Source: an uncultured Actinomycetota bacterium
GTDB taxonomy: Bacteria; Actinomycetota; Humimicrobiia; Humimicrobiales; Humimicrobiaceae
NCBI GenBank assembly: GCA_964494385.1
Contig: CAZBSE010000004.1
Span: 12,475-76,474 of the forward strand
Direction: 5' to 3'
DNA length: 64,000 bases
Position 1 is the first letter of the stretch. The number at the start of each line of letters is the position of its first letter. This document shows positions 57,635 to 64,000 of this stretch, piece after piece. The notes below the pieces were generated by a model, which did no database searches, had not been told where the DNA came from, and saw only the letters and a program-made list of their open reading frames with translations. The translations under genes and the position numbers were made by a program.

Positions 57635-58753
57635 TTATGCTTCCGCTAACTTAAAATTATCAATATAGTTTTTAAATTTTTTAAATATATATCTGGAATC
57701 ATGGGGGCCCGGACCTGCTTCGGGGTGGTGCTGAACCGAAAGCGAGCCTATTTTGGGATATTCTATTCCCTCTATTGTCCCGTCATTTAAATTCAGGTGC
57801 GTTACTTTATATCCCGTAACCTTAACGGATTTAAGCGAATCAATATCCACTGAAAATCCGTGATTCTGCGTGGTCACTTCGACTTCACCTGTCTCTAAAT
57901 TTTTTACCGGATGATTCGCCCCGTGATGGCCGAATTTTAACTTATAGGTTTTTGCACCCAGGGCCAGTGCCAGCAGCTGATGTCCCAGACAGATTCCAAA
58001 TAAGGGCTTCTTTCCTATCAGCCTTTTTATGTTGGAAATGGCATAGTCTACTGCAGCAGGATCCCCCGGGCCGTTGGACAGAAGGATCCCGTCCGGATTT
58101 CCGGCCAGGACCTCGTCTGCGTCCGCAGCCGCAGGTACTACCCTTATCTTAAAGCCCGCATCAGACAGGCATCTTAGGATATTAAGCTTTACTCCGTAGT
58201 CATAAACTGCAACGGTACAGCTGCAGCCGCTTCTTCCCGGGTTAAAGGTATAGGGCTCCCTGCAGGTAACAAGATCCACAAGGTTTTTTCCCTCCATATC
58301 AGGGTAGCTTTTTAATTTTCCGGCCAGAATTTTTTTATTAAAAGTTTTAGTAGATATTATACCTTTCATGGCGCCTTTAACCCTTATATGCTTGGTAAGC
58401 TGCCTGGTATCAATTTCCGAAATTCCCATGATATTGTACTTTTTTAAGTACTGCTCCAGGCTGGACTCGGCTCTCCAGCTGCTGTAATATTCAAGATGTT
58501 CCCTTACAATAAATCCCTTTACCTGGACCTTTTCCGACTCTATGTCCTTACTGTTTATCCCATAGTTGCCTATCTGGGGATAGGTCATGGTAACAATCTG
58601 CTCGCAGTAAGAGGGGTCGGTCAGAATTTCCTGATAGCCGGTCATGGAAGTGTTAAAAACAACTTCCCCCATTATCTCGCCCCCGCAGCCGAAACTTTTG
58701 CCTTCAAACACTTTACCGTCTTCAAGTACCAATATCGCTTCCAACTCAATCAC
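57635..58753 (-). CDS. carA: Carbamoyl-phosphate synthase small (glutaminase) subunit
   Basis: Class I GATase triad (GICLGHQ...) and the CarA N-domain. Confidence 0.95.
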
Positions 58754-60041
58754 TCCTGTAAATTAATTTGCCCTTGCTTATGGTGCAGACCACCTTTCCC
58801 TTCAGCTTCTGACCTATAAAGGCGCTGTTTTTACTTTTTGATATGAAATCTTCCCTCTTTACTGTCTTTTCCGTACCGGTGTCTATAACCGCAATATCGG
58901 CCAGCCTACCCACCTCTATCTTTCCGGCGTCTATGCCCAGTATCTTTGCAGGTGAGGCTGTTATCAGCTTTATAAGTCCGGGAAGGCTCATTTTTCCCTC
59001 TCCGCATAATTTGCTAAAAGATGCGCTGAACAGTGTCTCCAGGCCGATGGTTCCGAATTCTGCCAGTCTGAAGGTGGTATTTTTTTCGGTATCAAGATGG
59101 GGGGCATGGTCGCTTGCCACCGCATCAATTACCCCCTCCTTTATGCCGCCTACCAGAGCCTGCCTGTCCTCCTCGCTCCTTATGGGAGGCTTGACCTTGA
59201 GGCTGGTGTTAAAGGAAGTAAGAAAGCTGTCATTGAAAAACAAATGGTGCGGGGTCACATCACAGGTTATATTGATCCCGTCCTTTTTGGCTTTCCTTAT
59301 CATCTCCACCCCGCTTTTTGTGCTGAGGTGGGTTATATGTATTTTTGCCCCGCTTCTTGCGGCAAGGATTATGTCCCTGGCTATCATAAGGTCATCTGCC
59401 AGAGGCGATATCCCTTCCAGCCCCAGCATCGAAGAATAACGTCCCTCATGCATCAGACCGTCTCCCGACATGAGGATATCTTCTTCATGCAGTATCAGGG
59501 GAAGACCGAACTGTTTAGAATATCTCATAATCTCATACATCAGCCTGCTGTCACCGACACATTTGCCGTCGTCTGAAAAACCTACCGCTCCCGCCTCGGC
59601 CAGCAGCCCCATTTCAGTTATCTCTTTTCCTTTGAGCCCCCTGGTCATGGCCGCAACAGGAAAAACCCTGCAGGCCGCATCAATTGATTTTTCCAGGACA
59701 TATTTTACCGTATGCTCGCTGTCTATGGCCGGTCTGGTATTGGGCATACAGGCAGCAGCGGTTACGCCTCCCTTTACCGCAGCCAGCGCTCCGCTTTCAA
59801 TGGTTTCCTTATCCTCAAATCCGGGGTCCCTCAGATGAACGTGCATGTCCACAAACCCCGGTGAAACCGACAGCCCTTCCGCATCGATTTTAACCGCAGT
59901 ACTGCCGGCCTTAATATTTTTGCCTATTTCAGTTACAATTCCGTCTTTTATGTAAATGTCGGAAGCAAATACACCGCCCTCTGCGGGATCGATTATTGTG
60001 CCTCCCTTTATTAATATATTTCTGTTTTCGGTCTTATCCAT
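58746..60041 (-). CDS. pyrC: Dihydroorotase
   Basis: DMHVHLRDPG metal-binding motif; amidohydrolase fold. Confidence 0.93.
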   Translation of the reverse strand: MDKTENRNILIKGGTIIDPAEGGVFASDIYIKDGIVTEIGKNIKAGSTAVKIDAEGLSVSPGFVDMHVHLRDPGFEDKETIESGALAAVKGGVTAAACMPNTRPAIDSEHTVKYVLEKSIDAACRVFPVAAMTRGLKGKEITEMGLLAEAGAVGFSDDGKCVGDSRLMYEIMRYSKQFGLPLILHEEDILMSGDGLMHEGRYSSMLGLEGISPLADDLMIARDIILAARSGAKIHITHLSTKSGVEMIRKAKKDGINITCDVTPHHLFFNDSFLTSFNTSLKVKPPIRSEEDRQALVGGIKEGVIDAVASDHAPHLDTEKNTTFRLAEFGTIGLETLFSASFSKLCGEGKMSLPGLIKLITASPAKILGIDAGKIEVGRLADIAVIDTGTEKTVKREDFISKSKNSAFIGQKLKGKVVCTISKGKLIYRSD

Positions 60042-60047
60042 ATAACA

Positions 60048-60968
60048 TCATCCCAGTATTAAATATAGTATGGCCATTCTTATGGCCACCCCGGAAGTTA
60101 CCTGCTTTTCAATCACGATTTTGTCCGCCAGTTTTCCTTTTACATCCATTACCTCATCGGTAATCTCTATCCCCCTGTTTACCGGTCCGGGGTGCATAAC
60201 TATCGAGCCGGACTTCATTCTTTTCAGCCTGTCCATATCAAGACCCAAAAACCGTTTATACTCCATCACCGATGGGTAAAATTTCCTGCTCTGCCTTTCA
60301 AACTGCATCCTTAACATATACAGGATATCGCAGTCTTCTATGACATCGTCAATGCAGTGCCTTACCTTAATTTCGGAAAAGTCCTCGGGTAAAAACATGG
60401 TGGGAGAAACTATAGTCACGTCCATGCCCATCTTTTTAAAAAGGGCAACATCCGATCTCGCCACCCTGCTGTCCAGAAAATCTCCCACAACGGCCGCTTT
60501 GAGCCCTTTTAATTTGCCGAATTCCTTATTTATGGTGTACAGATCCAGCAGTGCCTGGGTCGGGTGCCGGTTCTTTCCGTCCCCGGCGTTTATTACAGGG
60601 ATATCCGTCAGCCTGTCCATCATAACTGCTGTTCCGCTGTCAGGGTGCCTTATTATTACCAGATCGACCTTCATGGAAAGTATGGTCCTTAAAGTGTCTA
60701 TTATGGACTCACCTTTTTTCAGGCTGCTGTCCGGAGCCGAAAAATTAACAATGTCTGCGCTCAGCCTCTTGGCCGCTATCTCAAATGAAGTCCTGGTCCT
60801 GGTACTGGGCTCGAAAAAGAGATTAAATACGGTTTTACCCCTCAGGGTGGGGACCTTTTTTACCTTCCTTTTCGAAATCTCTCCGAAAGAATCTGCATTT
60901 GAGAGTATGAGCTCTATGTCCCCGGGCTCCAGGCTGTCTATATCCAGCAGGCTTTTATTGCTTAACAT
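60048..60968 (-). CDS. pyrB: Aspartate carbamoyltransferase catalytic subunit
   Basis: STRTR carbamoyl-phosphate-binding motif and HPxQ. Confidence 0.95.
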   Translation of the reverse strand: MLSNKSLLDIDSLEPGDIELILSNADSFGEISKRKVKKVPTLRGKTVFNLFFEPSTRTRTSFEIAAKRLSADIVNFSAPDSSLKKGESIIDTLRTILSMKVDLVIIRHPDSGTAVMMDRLTDIPVINAGDGKNRHPTQALLDLYTINKEFGKLKGLKAAVVGDFLDSRVARSDVALFKKMGMDVTIVSPTMFLPEDFSEIKVRHCIDDVIEDCDILYMLRMQFERQSRKFYPSVMEYKRFLGLDMDRLKRMKSGSIVMHPGPVNRGIEITDEVMDVKGKLADKIVIEKQVTSGVAIRMAILYLILG

Positions 60969-60970
60969 GG

Positions 60971-61507
60971 CTATTCCTTCTTTACCACTGTGACACTATC
61001 CGTACCGTCAACCTCTTTTAATTTTACCTCTACTGATTCACTGCGGGAGGTGGGCAGGTTCTTTCCTACATAATCGGCCCTTATGGGAAGTTCCCTGTGC
61101 CCCCTGTCTATTAAAACCACCAGCTGTATGCTTCTGGGCCTTCCGAAATCTATTATGGCATCCATGGCCGCCCTTACCGTTCTTCCGGTGTAGAGCACAT
61201 CGTCAACCAGGATCACGTTCTTTCCGCCTATATCAAAGGAGATATCGGTTATCTGGGCATCCCGCTTTATGCTCCTGCCTATATCGTCCCTGTAAAAGGT
61301 TATATCAAGCTTGCCCGCATCGACCCTGGCCCCTTCAAACTTTTCAATATTTGCGACTATCCTGTTTGCCAGAGGAACTCCCCTTTTCTGAAGACCTATG
61401 AAAACAAGGTTCCCGGGACCTTTGTTTCTCTCCAGGATCTCATGTGAGATCCTCTTGATTACCCTTTCCATGTCACTTTCGCTTAAAATGTTTGCTATTT
61501 CCGGCAT
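60971..61507 (-). CDS. pyrR: Bifunctional pyrimidine operon attenuation regulator / uracil phosphoribosyltransferase PyrR
   Basis: PRTase-type fold ([12 protein letters not shown]); first gene of the pyrR-B-C-carAB-K-D-F-E cluster. Confidence 0.92.
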
Positions 61508-61522
61508 AATCCCTCACTGCAT

Positions 61523-61554
61523 AAAAAAACCTCCTTACCATATAGGTAAGAAGG
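61523..61554 (-). terminator. pyr leader attenuator terminator (10-bp stem, UAUAU loop, U7)
   Basis: Minus-strand RNA CCUUCUUACC-UAUAU-GGUAAGGAGG followed by UUUUUUU, just 5' of the pyrR RBS/ATG. Confidence 0.65.
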
Positions 61555-61601
61555 TCAAAATATTACTTATATTGGAATATTTTATAAATATTTTTTTCAT
61601 T

Positions 61602-61632
61602 CCTTTTTAGTCTCTCCGGACTATTTTAAAGG
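61602..61632 (-). promoter_or_regulatory. PyrR-binding loop (anti-antiterminator hairpin) in the pyr leader
   Basis: Minus-strand RNA CCUUUAAAAUAGUCCGGAGAGACUAAAAAGG contains AGUCCGGAGAGACU, matching the conserved PyrR box ARUCCNGAGAGGYU with one mismatch. It sits in a stem-loop about 50 nt upstream of the terminator. Confidence 0.65.
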
Positions 61633-61714
61633 TTAAATTTATTTAATTTTATACTCTGTCCAACAGATACTATAGGAGATTACAGATAAAAAAACAAGCA
61701 GAAATTTTAAAAAA

Positions 61715-62074
61715 CTAGCCCATATTCTTTCTCAGCTGTCTGAGCTTGTAGTTTAAATCTCCCTTGCCTTCTTTTTTATAACCGCCGCCGCCGCCGTAAT
61801 TTCTATCTTTTGAACCGAAGTTTTCCCTGTTCTGGGTTCTGGCTTCATTAACCACAATAGTTCTTCCCTTGAACTCGCTCTGGTTCAGTTTTTCCATAGC
61901 TGCTTTTGCCTGTTCTTCGCTCTCCATCTCTATAAATCCGAAACCTCTTGATTTTCCGTCCATCCTGGTTATTACCTTGGAGTAAGTAACAGTTCCTTCC
62001 TGTGCAAACAGCTCTTCCAGCTCTTTATCGGTAGTGTCATAGTCCAGATTACCAACATACATTCTCTTATTCAC
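61715..62074 (-). CDS. RRM-type (RNP-1/RNP-2) RNA-binding protein with a Gly-rich C-terminal tail
   Basis: MYVGNL (RNP-2) and RGFGFIEM (RNP-1) motifs, then a GGGGGY tail; 119 aa. Confidence 0.8.
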   Translation of the reverse strand: MNKRMYVGNLDYDTTDKELEELFAQEGTVTYSKVITRMDGKSRGFGFIEMESEEQAKAAMEKLNQSEFKGRTIVVNEARTQNRENFGSKDRNYGGGGGYKKEGKGDLNYKLRQLRKNMG

Positions 62075-62408
62075 TTAAAAATACCTTTCCTTAAATTGCT
62101 TTACTATATATAAAAGAGAAGTAGAAACTATTATTTAAAATGTGAAACAAATGAATTAATAAGGAATGCAAAAAGAAGATTTAATTCTATTTATATTTAC
62201 ATACTATAATAAAAAATCCCTACTGCCCTGTTTTAAAATTAAAACTAACTAGATATTATATAATATATTTTCCATTTGTCCAAAGATTTTTTTAAAAGTA
62301 TTACTAAATTCCCCATCTGTTAGTTACATCACTTAATATCTATTTTTCTAAATTACCATCTAATTTTTCCTAATTTTAGAATATTATTCTCTGTATGCTG
62401 TGAATATA

Positions 62409-62793
62409 TTAGATATCTAATTTTAATTTTGGATTATTTTTTTTAAGGTATTTTTCAATAACAGATACAAATTCTTCTGCATCATCCATATTTTTTAACA
62501 ATTGAGTTTTAGAACTAGAGTAATCAGTTTGATACTCAAATCTATTCCTTTGTATTCTCAACTTATTATACTTAATAATCAAATTTTTAAAATCATTCCC
62601 AATAATCCTGCTTACAGCTTCAATTATTCCAACATGTTGAAATCTATTCCCGGGTCTATATCCCTGGGATCTTATAAGAGCGTTTGCCGCATGAAACATA
62701 GCATTATAAATAAATGTAAGAGCTGCTCCTTCATCTAAACTTATCAAACTTCTAGCTGTTTCTAAATCCTTCTTTGACCGTTTAATAAATTTT
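62409..62793 (-). CDS. HEPN-domain protein (HepT-like toxin partner of the upstream nucleotidyltransferase); start codon uncertain
   Basis: The HEPN helix pair (...KKDLETARSLISLDEG / AALTFIYNAMFHAANALIRSQGY), then RFQHVG...NRFEYQ. The track start (TTG at 62747) would cut helix 1. The frame is open up to 62856 with no ATG/GTG; an ATT at 62791-62793 is the first plausible initiator. It overlaps the 3' end of the MNT gene in another frame. Confidence 0.65.
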
Positions 62794-62832
62794 TGAATCT
62801 GGTCAAATCCAATTTTAGATTCCTTTTTAAGC

Positions 62833-63450
62833 TTACCTTCTGCTATTAAGTCTTCGTAATCCAGATTCTTCTCCCTTTAACATTATTTTCTTATCATCTA
62901 AAATACTTAAAATAAAACTATCCTTCTCTTTTACTCTTTTATACCATTCTTCTCCTGAATAATAAGTATAATTAATTTCCCTTGAAATTCTATGTTCTAA
63001 ATTATTTATTTTTTCAAGAAAGATATTCTCATTAAAATGTTCAATATTAATAATCAAGCATAAATCTATATCAGAAAAGGCACCCTCTTCACTTTTTGCA
63101 AATGAACCATATATAAAAGCTAAAACAATGCCGCCAACTTCACTAGTTATTTTTTGAAGACTTCCGTAAATTCCAATAGTTTTAAAAATTATAGATTTTA
63201 ATTCATTAAATAATGGATACTTTTTATTTATTGAGAAGTATTTTTGTTTGCCCCTATTAATTGATAAAAAAATGCCCTCTTTTTCAAGTTTCGACAGTTC
63301 CTTAGACAAATTACCCGGATCTTCCACAAGAATAACAGCTATTTCTCTTAAATACTTCTCATCATCAGGGTTCGTGAAAAAATGTAATAAAATTTTATTT
63401 CTTAACCTTGATTTGGAAATTTCTAAAAATTTAATCATTGTTGTAATCAC
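62833..63450 (-). CDS. Winged-helix DNA-binding domain fused to a minimal nucleotidyltransferase (MNT/MntA-like antitoxin partner)
   Basis: N-terminal wHTH-like segment (LRNKILLHFFTNPDDEKYLREIAVIL...NLSKELSKLEKEGIF), then the NT-fold motif GS(x9-13)D(I/V)D: IYGSFAKSEEGAFSDIDLCLI. The track start is a GTG at 63450; the ATG at 63436-63438 (MIKFLEIS...) is the more likely start. Confidence 0.75.
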   Translation of the reverse strand: MITTMIKFLEISKSRLRNKILLHFFTNPDDEKYLREIAVILVEDPGNLSKELSKLEKEGIFLSINRGKQKYFSINKKYPLFNELKSIIFKTIGIYGSLQKITSEVGGIVLAFIYGSFAKSEEGAFSDIDLCLIINIEHFNENIFLEKINNLEHRISREINYTYYSGEEWYKRVKEKDSFILSILDDKKIMLKGEESGLRRLNSRR

Positions 63451-63482
63451 CTACAACAATTGTAGTAGAACTTTACAACAAT
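63437..63482. promoter_or_regulatory. Putative operator: perfect 9-bp inverted repeat ATTGTTGTA-N6-TACAACAAT plus a third TACAACAAT half-site
   Basis: Read directly: attgttgta (63437-63445) atcacc tacaacaat (63452-63460) and tacaacaat again at 63474-63482. It overlaps the start codon region of the wHTH-MNT gene. Confidence 0.55.
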
Positions 63483-63592
63483 AGCAATGTTTTATTTTTT
63501 AACGAAAAGCTATAAATATAAGCAGACACTGCTGGCAGCTTATATTCTTTGCCTATTACATAACTTAGCTAATATTTAATATAGCAAGTATT

Positions 63593-64000
63593 TTAAGGTT
63601 CCACAACCTTGCCCATAAACAGGATGCTTCCGGTCCTGTCATCTTGGATTACAAAAAAGAAGGGCCTGTCCACTTTAAATTCCACTATTTCTTCTATCAT
63701 GGCAGCCGATTCCAGCATCTCAACCACGGTTGCCGCCGCAGCTTCGCTTCCTTCCTCGTTTACCTCGATTACAGTCTTGTGCAGCACCCTTGATATAAAT
63801 ATATCCGGTGCAATCCCGCTAAAATCGGCCCGGCTGCCGTCAAAGGCAATTCCCATACCCATTTCGGCAAGTACGCCGTTTAAAAGCTTGATCCCGTATT
63901 CCATCTTGTATCTGGGCATGGACACGTGGACCTGTTTTTTTGAAAATGACTCTAAAGTCCGGTTCCATGTATCCTCATCCAGTGAGTCTATCAAAGAATC
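63593..64000 (-). CDS. Serpin (serine protease inhibitor), C-terminal part; gene continues beyond the window end
   Basis: SMPRYKMEYGIKLLNGVLAEMGMGIAFDG...FISRVLHKTVIEVNEEGSEAAAATVVEMLESAAM...FKVDRPFFFVIQDDRTGSILFMGKVVEP: serpin strands s3A/s5A, the hinge EEGSEAAAAT of an inhibitory reactive-centre loop, and the C-terminal FxVDRPF motif. Confidence 0.85.
   Translation of the reverse strand, partial: DSLIDSLDEDTWNRTLESFSKKQVHVSMPRYKMEYGIKLLNGVLAEMGMGIAFDGSRADFSGIAPDIFISRVLHKTVIEVNEEGSEAAAATVVEMLESAAMIEEIVEFKVDRPFFFVIQDDRTGSILFMGKVVEP

Follow-up and report, generated by a model that had tools for sequence, protein, structure and literature searches.

A PDC-M05-type nucleotidyltransferase–HEPN gene pair with a conserved, predicted CTG start codon and a putative three-site operator in an uncultured Actinomycetota bacterium

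How does a HEPN-domain protein begin when its reading frame offers no canonical start codon ahead of the first helix of the domain? This question is raised by two overlapping minus-strand genes in a stretch of 64,000 nucleotides, here called the window, from contig CAZBSE010000004.1 (assembly GCA_964494385.1) of an uncultured Actinomycetota bacterium, whose closest named relative is Candidatus Hydromicrobium (Actinomycetota, Humimicrobiia). The first gene encodes a nucleotidyltransferase (MNT) with an N-terminal winged helix-turn-helix (wHTH) and the second a HEPN protein, and the pair lies downstream of a serpin gene and a terminator-like hairpin. An initial annotation of this DNA had described the pair as a HepT/MntA-type (type VII) toxin-antitoxin module with an unusual wHTH fusion, and had left three options for the HEPN gene: a translationally coupled start at ATT, a programmed frameshift, or a single fused gene broken by an indel. 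The underlying observation is confirmed here and its interpretation is supported in part, with corrections to the HepT/MntA label, the supposed rarity of the fusion, the ATT start, the frameshift or broken fusion, and the age of any acquisition. We consider it likely that the two genes form a self-contained operon of the PDC-M05 type with a conserved CTG start for the HEPN gene, in which the wHTH would repress the operon and the MNT would neutralise the HEPN protein by nucleotidylylation of Tyr111.

The HEPN reading frame is open from 62876 to 62409, and the initial annotation was correct that it contains no canonical start before helix 1, as the first ATG, GTG or TTG is TTG 62747, which is codon 40 and lies within the HEPN domain. 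The start that we assign instead, CTG 62864, is preceded by a Shine-Dalgarno sequence inside the MNT gene (Table 1), and the sequence AAAGGAG or AAGGGAG is kept about 6 nt ahead of the HEPN start in relatives. From this CTG to the MNT stop codon the two genes overlap by 32 nt (62864-62833) in the +1 frame, so that the frame of the overlap had been given rightly and its length, put at about 24 nt, had not. Many homologues of 151 amino acids begin with M/L-[DIN]-Y-[KE]-D-L-[IV]-A-E-G-K-L-K-K-E, which aligns exactly to CTG-GAT-TAC-GAA-GAC, and the PADLOC M05B profile aligns from residue 1 of the CTG-started protein.

With DNA of relatives drawn from collections of genomes and metagenomes, we determined which codon aligns to CTG 62864 in 39 distinct proteins. 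It is CTG in 11 of them and TTG in 12, with few cases of ATG or GTG. A canonical codon lies shortly before this position in three of these cases, namely a GTG five codons ahead of the CTG in one and an ATG two codons ahead of the TTG in two; in a more distant clade (40-52% identity) the HEPN gene has an ATG two or three codons upstream of the aligned position. Most of the CTG and TTG relatives carry an in-frame stop codon 0-4 codons upstream, and in one locus (L075) a TAG stands directly before the CTG. In a neighbour-joining tree CTG occurs in two deep clades that bracket the TTG clade, which indicates that the CTG is old and not a private mutation. The segment that it opens is also conserved as protein: in most pairs of the window's clade the ratio of nonsynonymous to synonymous divergence (dN/dS) of HEPN codons 2-39 is 0.05-0.10, with dS ranging from 0.7 to saturated, and is comparable to that of the remainder of the gene (0.05-0.19).

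The choice of codon points the same way. Position 1 of the HEPN protein is always CTG or TTG in 23 close relatives, vs 28% of 339 internal leucine codons, among which TTA and CTT prevail. Restriction to these two codons follows from pairing of the initiator tRNA at positions 2 and 3, and would not be expected for an internal leucine. The comparisons thus show, by computation, a predicted HEPN start at the conserved non-AUG codon CTG 62864 and not at the downstream TTG. Of the three earlier options, the coupled non-canonical start is the one that stands, with CTG in place of ATT. There is no ATT between the upstream stop codon and TTG 62747, and ATA 62846, which we also considered, has no properly spaced Shine-Dalgarno sequence and lies off the conserved position. 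In Escherichia coli, CUG initiates at about 1-2% of the AUG level (range 0.02-3%), and among annotated starts ATG accounts for 81.8%, GTG for 13.8% and TTG for 4.35%, with CTG rare (bioRxiv 10.1101/063800).

Both proteins match the models of a catalogued family. The MNT protein matches the PADLOC model PDC-M05A (PDLC04368; E 3.8e-45; residues 10-196 against profile positions 12-197 of 201), and the CTG-started HEPN protein matches PDC-M05B (PDLC04374; E 2.9e-18; residues 1-147 against profile positions 1-145 of 146). The genes lie on the same strand, overlap, and follow the order A then B, which is the adjacency used to call PDC-M05. By these profiles the pair is an ordinary member of PDC-M05, a toxin-antitoxin-like candidate phage-defence family made up of the same two proteins, a nucleotidyltransferase and a HEPN protein. 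For PDC-M05 an enrichment in Archaea has been reported, and its antiviral role is described as unconfirmed (PMC12988326); the present copy is in a bacterial genome (Actinomycetota). A cold-seep study describes PDC-M05A as an ArsR-like HTH plus NT_KNTase_like, and reports that a PDC-M05 representative taken from another organism gave E. coli B protection from at least one phage (bioRxiv 10.1101/2024.09.26.614923). In the papers on PDC-M05 that we consulted there is no mention of a non-AUG HEPN start or of a three-site operator. A CTG/TTG start conserved over deep divergence and the conserved operator described below appear to be undescribed, as details and not as a new kind of system: they leave the kind of system unchanged, and add mainly annotation and mechanistic detail to a barely characterised family.

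The two-gene MNT/HEPN module recognised in the initial annotation is borne out by Pfam, in which both families match above their cutoffs. MNT residues 94-176 match Polbeta (31.5 bits, cutoff 26.9) and NTP_transf_2 (27.7 bits, cutoff 21) and include the GS-x10-DID motif, and HEPN residues 24-138, counted from CTG 62864, match PF05168 (profile positions 2-116 of 117; 32.2 bits, cutoff 22). In terms of COGs it is the COG1708/COG2250 combination of Makarova et al. (PMC2701414). It is not, in the strict sense, a type VII HepT/MntA system. Shared with that type are the order of MNT before HEPN, the overlap of the genes, the GS-x10-DxD motif in the MNT protein and a conserved tyrosine at the HEPN motif, where in characterised systems MntA adds AMP (PMC4621449, PMC7641770, PMC11586414, PMC13000451). 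In contrast, the HEPN domain here is of the PF05168/UPF0332 type, this being the sole match in the Pfam search, which gave none to DUF86; its motif reads RNRFEY, with no histidine in Rx4-6H; and the MNT protein scores 23.8 bits against the NCBIfam MntA equivalog NF047752, below the cutoff of 60. MntA SO_3165 moreover has no predicted DNA-binding domain (PMC4621449), whereas the MNT here has a dedicated wHTH.

Within the HEPN motif, 18 aligned relatives share R106 and Y111 without exception and N107 and E110 almost without exception, and none of them has a histidine at the Rx4-6H position. The PF05168 match, the kept R106, the lost motif histidine and an invariant H77 N-terminal of the motif together give the pattern of HEPN-T/UPF0332 proteins (AF0298-like, COG2250), in which the motif histidine is lost and a second conserved histidine lies N-terminal of it (Anantharaman 2013, PMC3710099). 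AF0298 itself (PDB 2hsb) is matched by sequence (E 1.4e-7) and shares the R-N-x-x-(D/E)-Y motif and the alternative histidine. Among solved structures, both proteins have their best relatives in one HEPN-nucleotidyltransferase complex, entry 9xbd, chains A and E (HEPN, E 1.6e-7; nucleotidyltransferase, E 2.3e-4), in which the HEPN motif aligns to RNRSDY of chain A; in 9xbc chain A the residue aligned with Y111 is F. The similarity to these structures is distant, and the nucleotidyltransferase chain of 9xbd, of 120 amino acids, has no wHTH, its match being confined to the nucleotidyltransferase part of the MNT protein. A literature search returned no paper describing PDB 9xbd or 9xbc.

Two other systems invite comparison. 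In FhepTA of Shewanella, MNT and HEPN domains also act together, but as single polypeptides with a canonical HepT-type HEPN domain (PMC13000451), whereas here there are two overlapping genes, the second with its own Shine-Dalgarno sequence and start. AbiE likewise pairs a wHTH autorepressor, acting on inverted repeats in its own promoter, with a Pol-beta-fold nucleotidyltransferase; in AbiE, however, the nucleotidyltransferase AbiEii (DUF1814) is the toxin, the wHTH is on the other protein, AbiEi, and there is no HEPN protein. The AbiEii model gives only E 0.007 for this MNT protein.

The N-terminal winged helix proposed earlier is supported by structure prediction. By sequence it gives weak matches, to the ArsR/SmtB model NF033788 (E 0.008; 16 bits, below the cutoff of 55) and to ArsR-type chains of the PDB (E 0.05-0.3). 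An AlphaFold model of the MNT protein, built on a shallow alignment of 22 homologues and used for the wHTH part alone, has helices at residues 12-22, 30-37 and 41-53 and strands at 57-62 and 65-70, with local confidence (pLDDT) of about 68-80 over residues 20-75. All top Foldseek matches to this part in the PDB are ArsR/MarR-type regulators, among them SqrR, HlyU, NolR (DNA-bound), CadC and CzrA, with a root-mean-square deviation of about 2 Å over about 75 columns and E of about 1e-3 (1.9 Å over 74 columns for SqrR). We assign the MNT N-terminus to the ArsR-like wHTH fold with moderate confidence. The fusion of this domain to the nucleotidyltransferase, which the initial annotation called unusual, is widespread and catalogued: the PDC-M05A match is full-length, and a search with just the wHTH domain yields 1406 cluster representatives at 50% identity (238 at E <=1e-10), mostly proteins of 175-205 amino acids. 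In two comparative surveys (PMC3710099 and PMC2701414) we found no mention of wHTH-MNT fusions.

In addition, the DNA around the start of the MNT gene carries three copies of ATTGTTGTA. Copies B and C form a perfect 9-bp inverted repeat, ATTGTTGTA-N6-TACAACAAT, with a gap of 6 nt; copy A is a direct copy 22 bp upstream of B, and A and C form a 23-nt imperfect inverted repeat. The perfect palindrome with a third half-site, noted before, is thus found as an exact 9-mer at all three sites, and these are the only copies in the 64-kb window, all within 46 bp (63437-63482), where 0.64 would be expected per window; three copies within 50 bp arose in 0.4% of shuffles (4/1000). The layout TTG(-35)-N3-5-TGTTGTA-N7-8-TACTACAAT-TGTTGTA-(SD)-ACAACA-ATG, where SD is the Shine-Dalgarno sequence, is common to at least 15 relatives with 45-70% protein identity from several phyla. 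The block ACTACA-TTGT-GT is invariant among the relatives, and the sequence just upstream is not conserved.

The sites also vary together with the protein. Three relatives (L019, L047 and L049) have sites of the form TGT(A/G)GT, and all three carry DPTNLSR where the putative recognition helix begins, while 11 proteins with DP(G/A)NLS or DA(G/A)NLS have TGTTGT sites. In L049, sites B and C have changed together, to TGTGGT in both. In this small sample the operator variants appear to track the change in the recognition helix, as a protein-DNA contact would predict. The comparative data, conserved layout and helix covariation alike, strongly support the earlier suggestion of an autoregulatory operator. 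If true, the covariation would amount to a natural specificity code for an autoregulated defence module, and the conserved operator with its matching recognition-helix variants provides testable predictions on how PDC-M05 modules are switched on. We judged less likely that the B/C repeat is an RNA hairpin, its 5' arm overlapping the -10 hexamer upstream of the expected transcription start; site A, too, lies within the untranscribed spacer. Rfam has no match at the operator repeat.

The MNT gene may start at ATG 63438 or, alternatively, at GTG 63450. In a distant clade (L015, L041-L044 and L047) the MNT ATG stands about 11 nt after a -10-like TACAAT and ahead of the ACAACA half-site, which suggests a leaderless or near-leaderless MNT mRNA in that clade; the window codon aligned to this ATG is GTG 63450.

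The preferred mechanism brings these elements together. The wHTH would bind the three TGTTGTA half-sites, one in the promoter spacer, one across the -10 hexamer and the point where transcription is expected to begin, and one, in inverted orientation, across the ribosome-binding site and start codon. From this architecture its binding is predicted to repress the operon. The overlap of the genes would tie HEPN synthesis to translation of the first gene, and initiation at CUG, if it is as inefficient here as the few percent seen in E. coli, would leave much less of the HEPN protein than of the nucleotidyltransferase. As in type VII HepT/MntA and related characterised MNT/HEPN systems (PMC7641770, PMC11586414, PMC13000451), the nucleotidyltransferase may neutralise its HEPN partner through nucleotidylylation of the invariant Tyr111 in RNxFEY, and free HEPN protein may act as an RNase using Arg106 and the alternative His77. 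A broader proposal is that a whole PDC-M05 subfamily has fixed a CUG or weak UUG start of the HEPN gene, placed in the end of the nucleotidyltransferase gene after a strong Shine-Dalgarno sequence, as a throttle that would limit the putative toxin to a few percent of the translation rate of the antitoxin, with an operator that co-varies with one residue of the wHTH recognition helix; for this we find the arguments about evenly balanced. A CUG start conserved over such deep divergence is rare in bacteria, and would exemplify how the choice of start codon can set the stoichiometry of toxin to antitoxin.

Several points weigh against the mechanism. Toxicity, nucleotidylylation, DNA binding and the use of CTG are all inferred here, and the HEPN protein is missing the canonical Rx4-6H histidine, so that RNase activity seems not to be assured. 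Confidence in the AlphaFold model of the MNT protein as a whole is low (pLDDT 59.7). When the AT-rich 1.7 kb is shuffled by dinucleotides, 28% of the shuffles contain one such 9-bp inverted repeat, and the -35/-10 pair TTGCTA-17 nt-TACAAT (9/12) belongs to a class found at chance frequency (10 such sites vs 10.8 expected); since a hexamer scan does no better than chance in this AT-rich region, the promoter assignment rests on conservation. The covariation with the recognition helix is based on three proteins. The sequences in the covariation and codon counts are phylogenetically related, so that the nominal P of 2e-13 from the codon test is overstated. One closely related pair (L069/L073) has a dN/dS of 0.96 in the N-terminal segment of the HEPN gene, from only 10 changes.

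The most serious competing explanation concerns function. The pair could be a two-subunit nucleotidyltransferase with no toxin-antitoxin or defence role, like kanamycin nucleotidyltransferase (KNTase), in which the HEPN subunit binds the substrate, the target is a small molecule or a nucleic acid, and the wHTH is a mere transcriptional regulator. A HEPN protein without the canonical catalytic histidine fits such an enzyme, as does the stable synteny of the module within a lineage; Makarova 2009 (PMC2701414) could not distinguish toxin-antitoxin from antibiotic-modification roles of MNT-HEPN pairs, and the antiviral role of PDC-M05 is itself called unconfirmed (PMC12988326). The MNT-HEPN pairs characterised so far are, however, toxin-antitoxin systems (PMC4621449, PMC7641770, PMC11586414), and the phage protection given by one PDC-M05 (bioRxiv 10.1101/2024.09.26.614923) argues against a non-defence role, as does the patchy distribution of the family over several phyla at 58-67% identity. 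A weak HEPN start with a tight autoregulatory layout is also typical of toxin control. We therefore regard an enzyme of this kind, with either type of target, as unlikely.

For the structure of the HEPN gene itself, the next alternative to the CTG start is the gene as gene callers have it, a protein of 112 amino acids from TTG 62747 with the upstream open frame untranslated. This TTG is the first ATG, GTG or TTG in frame, and every database gene call for the sequence starts there. No Shine-Dalgarno sequence precedes it, however, and a start at this point cuts into the Pfam HEPN domain, whose match sets in at residue 24 counted from the CTG, so that the 112-residue entry (P0002) has no Pfam match. 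The 38 codons upstream of it are under purifying selection, and every residue they encode has its counterpart in homologues whose codon at the place of the CTG is ATG or TTG. We therefore consider the shorter gene very unlikely. Other HEPN relatives, present as database entries of 96-118 amino acids, resemble the same truncated call, and in the entries that we checked (P0002, P0024, P0027 and P0035) CTG is at the start position in all. The truncated entries are a systematic annotation artefact, at least for these four, which arises because gene callers do not consider CTG. Gene callers thus shorten this HEPN protein and its CTG-start relatives by 39 residues, with loss of the Pfam HEPN match, and automated scans of called proteins could in consequence miss the HEPN half of such modules.

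Less probable still is a single wHTH-MNT-HEPN polypeptide, made through a programmed +1 frameshift or once fused (as in KNTase or FhepTA) and broken by an indel. The HEPN frame does overlap the MNT 3' end at +1, and fused MNT-HEPN proteins occur in nature (PMC13000451). Across relatives, however, the overlap is 4, 11, 26, 32, 74 or 95 nt with a frame offset of 1 or 2, which leaves no conserved shift site, while the NTG codon and its Shine-Dalgarno sequence at fixed spacing are conserved; the TAG directly 5' of the CTG in L075 speaks against a continuous product as well. There is no fused homologue among the 120 closest MNT relatives, all of 192-203 amino acids, nor among the 39 loci. An assembly or indel error at the junction was also considered and rejected, since ten independent metagenome assemblies from different samples have 0 mismatches over the 1181-nt module; these ten identical public assemblies stand in for a read-level check and reveal no indel error, contrary to the broken fusion first proposed.

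The least credible option, a decaying HEPN pseudogene whose start was lost by a TTG-to-CTG transition, can draw on the single transition that separates CTG from the TTG of the sister clade and on one visibly degraded locus (L074: HEPN frameshifted, MNT shortened), but two deep clades retain CTG, their frames of 151 codons are intact, and dN/dS over the whole gene is about 0.05-0.19. In L074 (809-1836; NCBI metagenome-assembled genome GCA_036681025.1) the MNT protein is cut to 138 amino acids, the HEPN gene lies in two frames, and CTT occupies the start position.

Table 1 Features of the module in the window (positions in the window; aa, amino acids)
Feature	Position	Strand	Basis or remark
wHTH-MNT gene, 201 aa	62833..63438	-	ATG 63438 to TAA; PDC-M05A-like
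Predicted ArsR-like winged helix-turn-helix, about residues 12-72	63223..63405	-	AlphaFold model, Foldseek; putative recognition helix DPGNLSKELSKLEKEG
Nucleotidyltransferase catalytic motif G111-S112-x10-D123-I-D125	63064..63108	-	translation; kept in the alignment of relatives
Shine-Dalgarno-like AGGTGAT of the MNT gene	63446..63452	-	7 nt before ATG 63438; between half-sites B and C, within their loop
HEPN gene as re-annotated, 151 aa, PF05168/UPF0332	62409..62864	-	CTG start; +1 frame relative to MNT
Shine-Dalgarno GGGAG of the HEPN gene	62871..62875	-	in the MNT coding sequence, 6 nt before CTG
Gene-caller start TTG	62745..62747	-	112-aa product; first 39 residues and part of the HEPN domain lost
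HEPN motif R106-N-R-F-E-Y111	62532..62549	-	canonical H replaced by Y111, the candidate site of nucleotidylylation
Invariant His77	62634..62636	-	alternative conserved histidine of AF0298-like HEPN; alignment of relatives; PMC3710099
-35-like hexamer TTGCTA	63482..63487	-	promoter scan; TTG kept in the alignment of 15 relatives
-10-like hexamer TACAAT	63459..63464	-	promoter scan; alignment columns; inside the invariant block ACTACA(A)TTGT
Putative operator half-site A, ATTGTTGTA, direct	63474..63482	-	exact 9-mer, in the -35/-10 spacer; TGTTGTA core kept
Putative operator half-site B, ATTGTTGTA, direct	63452..63460	-	overlaps the -10 hexamer and the expected transcription start
Putative operator half-site C, ATTGTTGTA, inverted relative to the operon	63437..63445	+	overlaps AT of the MNT start codon

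The AT-rich patch and the serpin neighbour described in the initial annotation are both confirmed. The G+C content (GC) is 0.22-0.31 over 62000-63600 vs about 0.46 in both flanks, and the upstream neighbour of the module is a serpin gene fragment (Pfam Serpin, E 4e-40). In relatives the order serpin/MNT/HEPN/RRM protein/pyrR/pyrB is shared, with module proteins that are 76-83% identical and HEPN genes that all have CTG, and the module has a GC of 0.26-0.29 vs 0.35-0.43 in the flanks. Other hosts of the close subfamily have low-GC genomes, in which the module does not stand out. Low GC thus agrees with the suggested foreign origin, and the data fit acquisition from a low-GC donor before the lineage diversified. 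A recent acquisition is not supported, because the module occupies the same serpin/RRM/pyrR site in diverged relatives and synonymous divergence between these copies is saturated; any acquisition would be old. No empty site was found among contigs that encode an identical RRM protein, each of which either includes the module or stops within the AT-rich spacer, and these contigs gave no direct evidence of insertion or excision. Three contigs of this organism (L065, L066 and L068) break off between the module and the RRM gene, in the AT-rich spacer near window positions 62225-62296, which could reflect low coverage or strain variation; the apparent variant L065 differs by an indel alone.

Several neighbouring features lie outside the module. 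The terminator-like hairpin 3' of the serpin gene, at 63521-63533 (-), consists of AGCAGTGTCTGCT followed by a T-rich tail, and its position after the serpin gene is consistent with a promoter of the module's own. Downstream, the HEPN stop codon is separated by a 334-bp spacer, with a GC of about 22%, from a gene whose product is a small RNA-binding protein of the RRM_1 family that has a Gly-rich tail (61715-62074 (-); Pfam E 1.4e-21). The best promoter-like site of the region, TGGACA-16-TATAAT (11/12; 62255-62282 (-)), lies 5' of this RRM_1 gene. Ahead of pyrR-pyrB-pyrC (61507..58746) there is a PyrR binding site at 61521-61636 (-) (Rfam RF00515; 56 bits, gathering score 54), which represents ordinary attenuation of a pyrimidine operon. 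In contigs of the same organism (L001, 132-1510), a sigma-70 factor (Sigma70_r2) and an RsgI_N-type anti-sigma factor are encoded directly upstream of a serpin of 418 amino acids.

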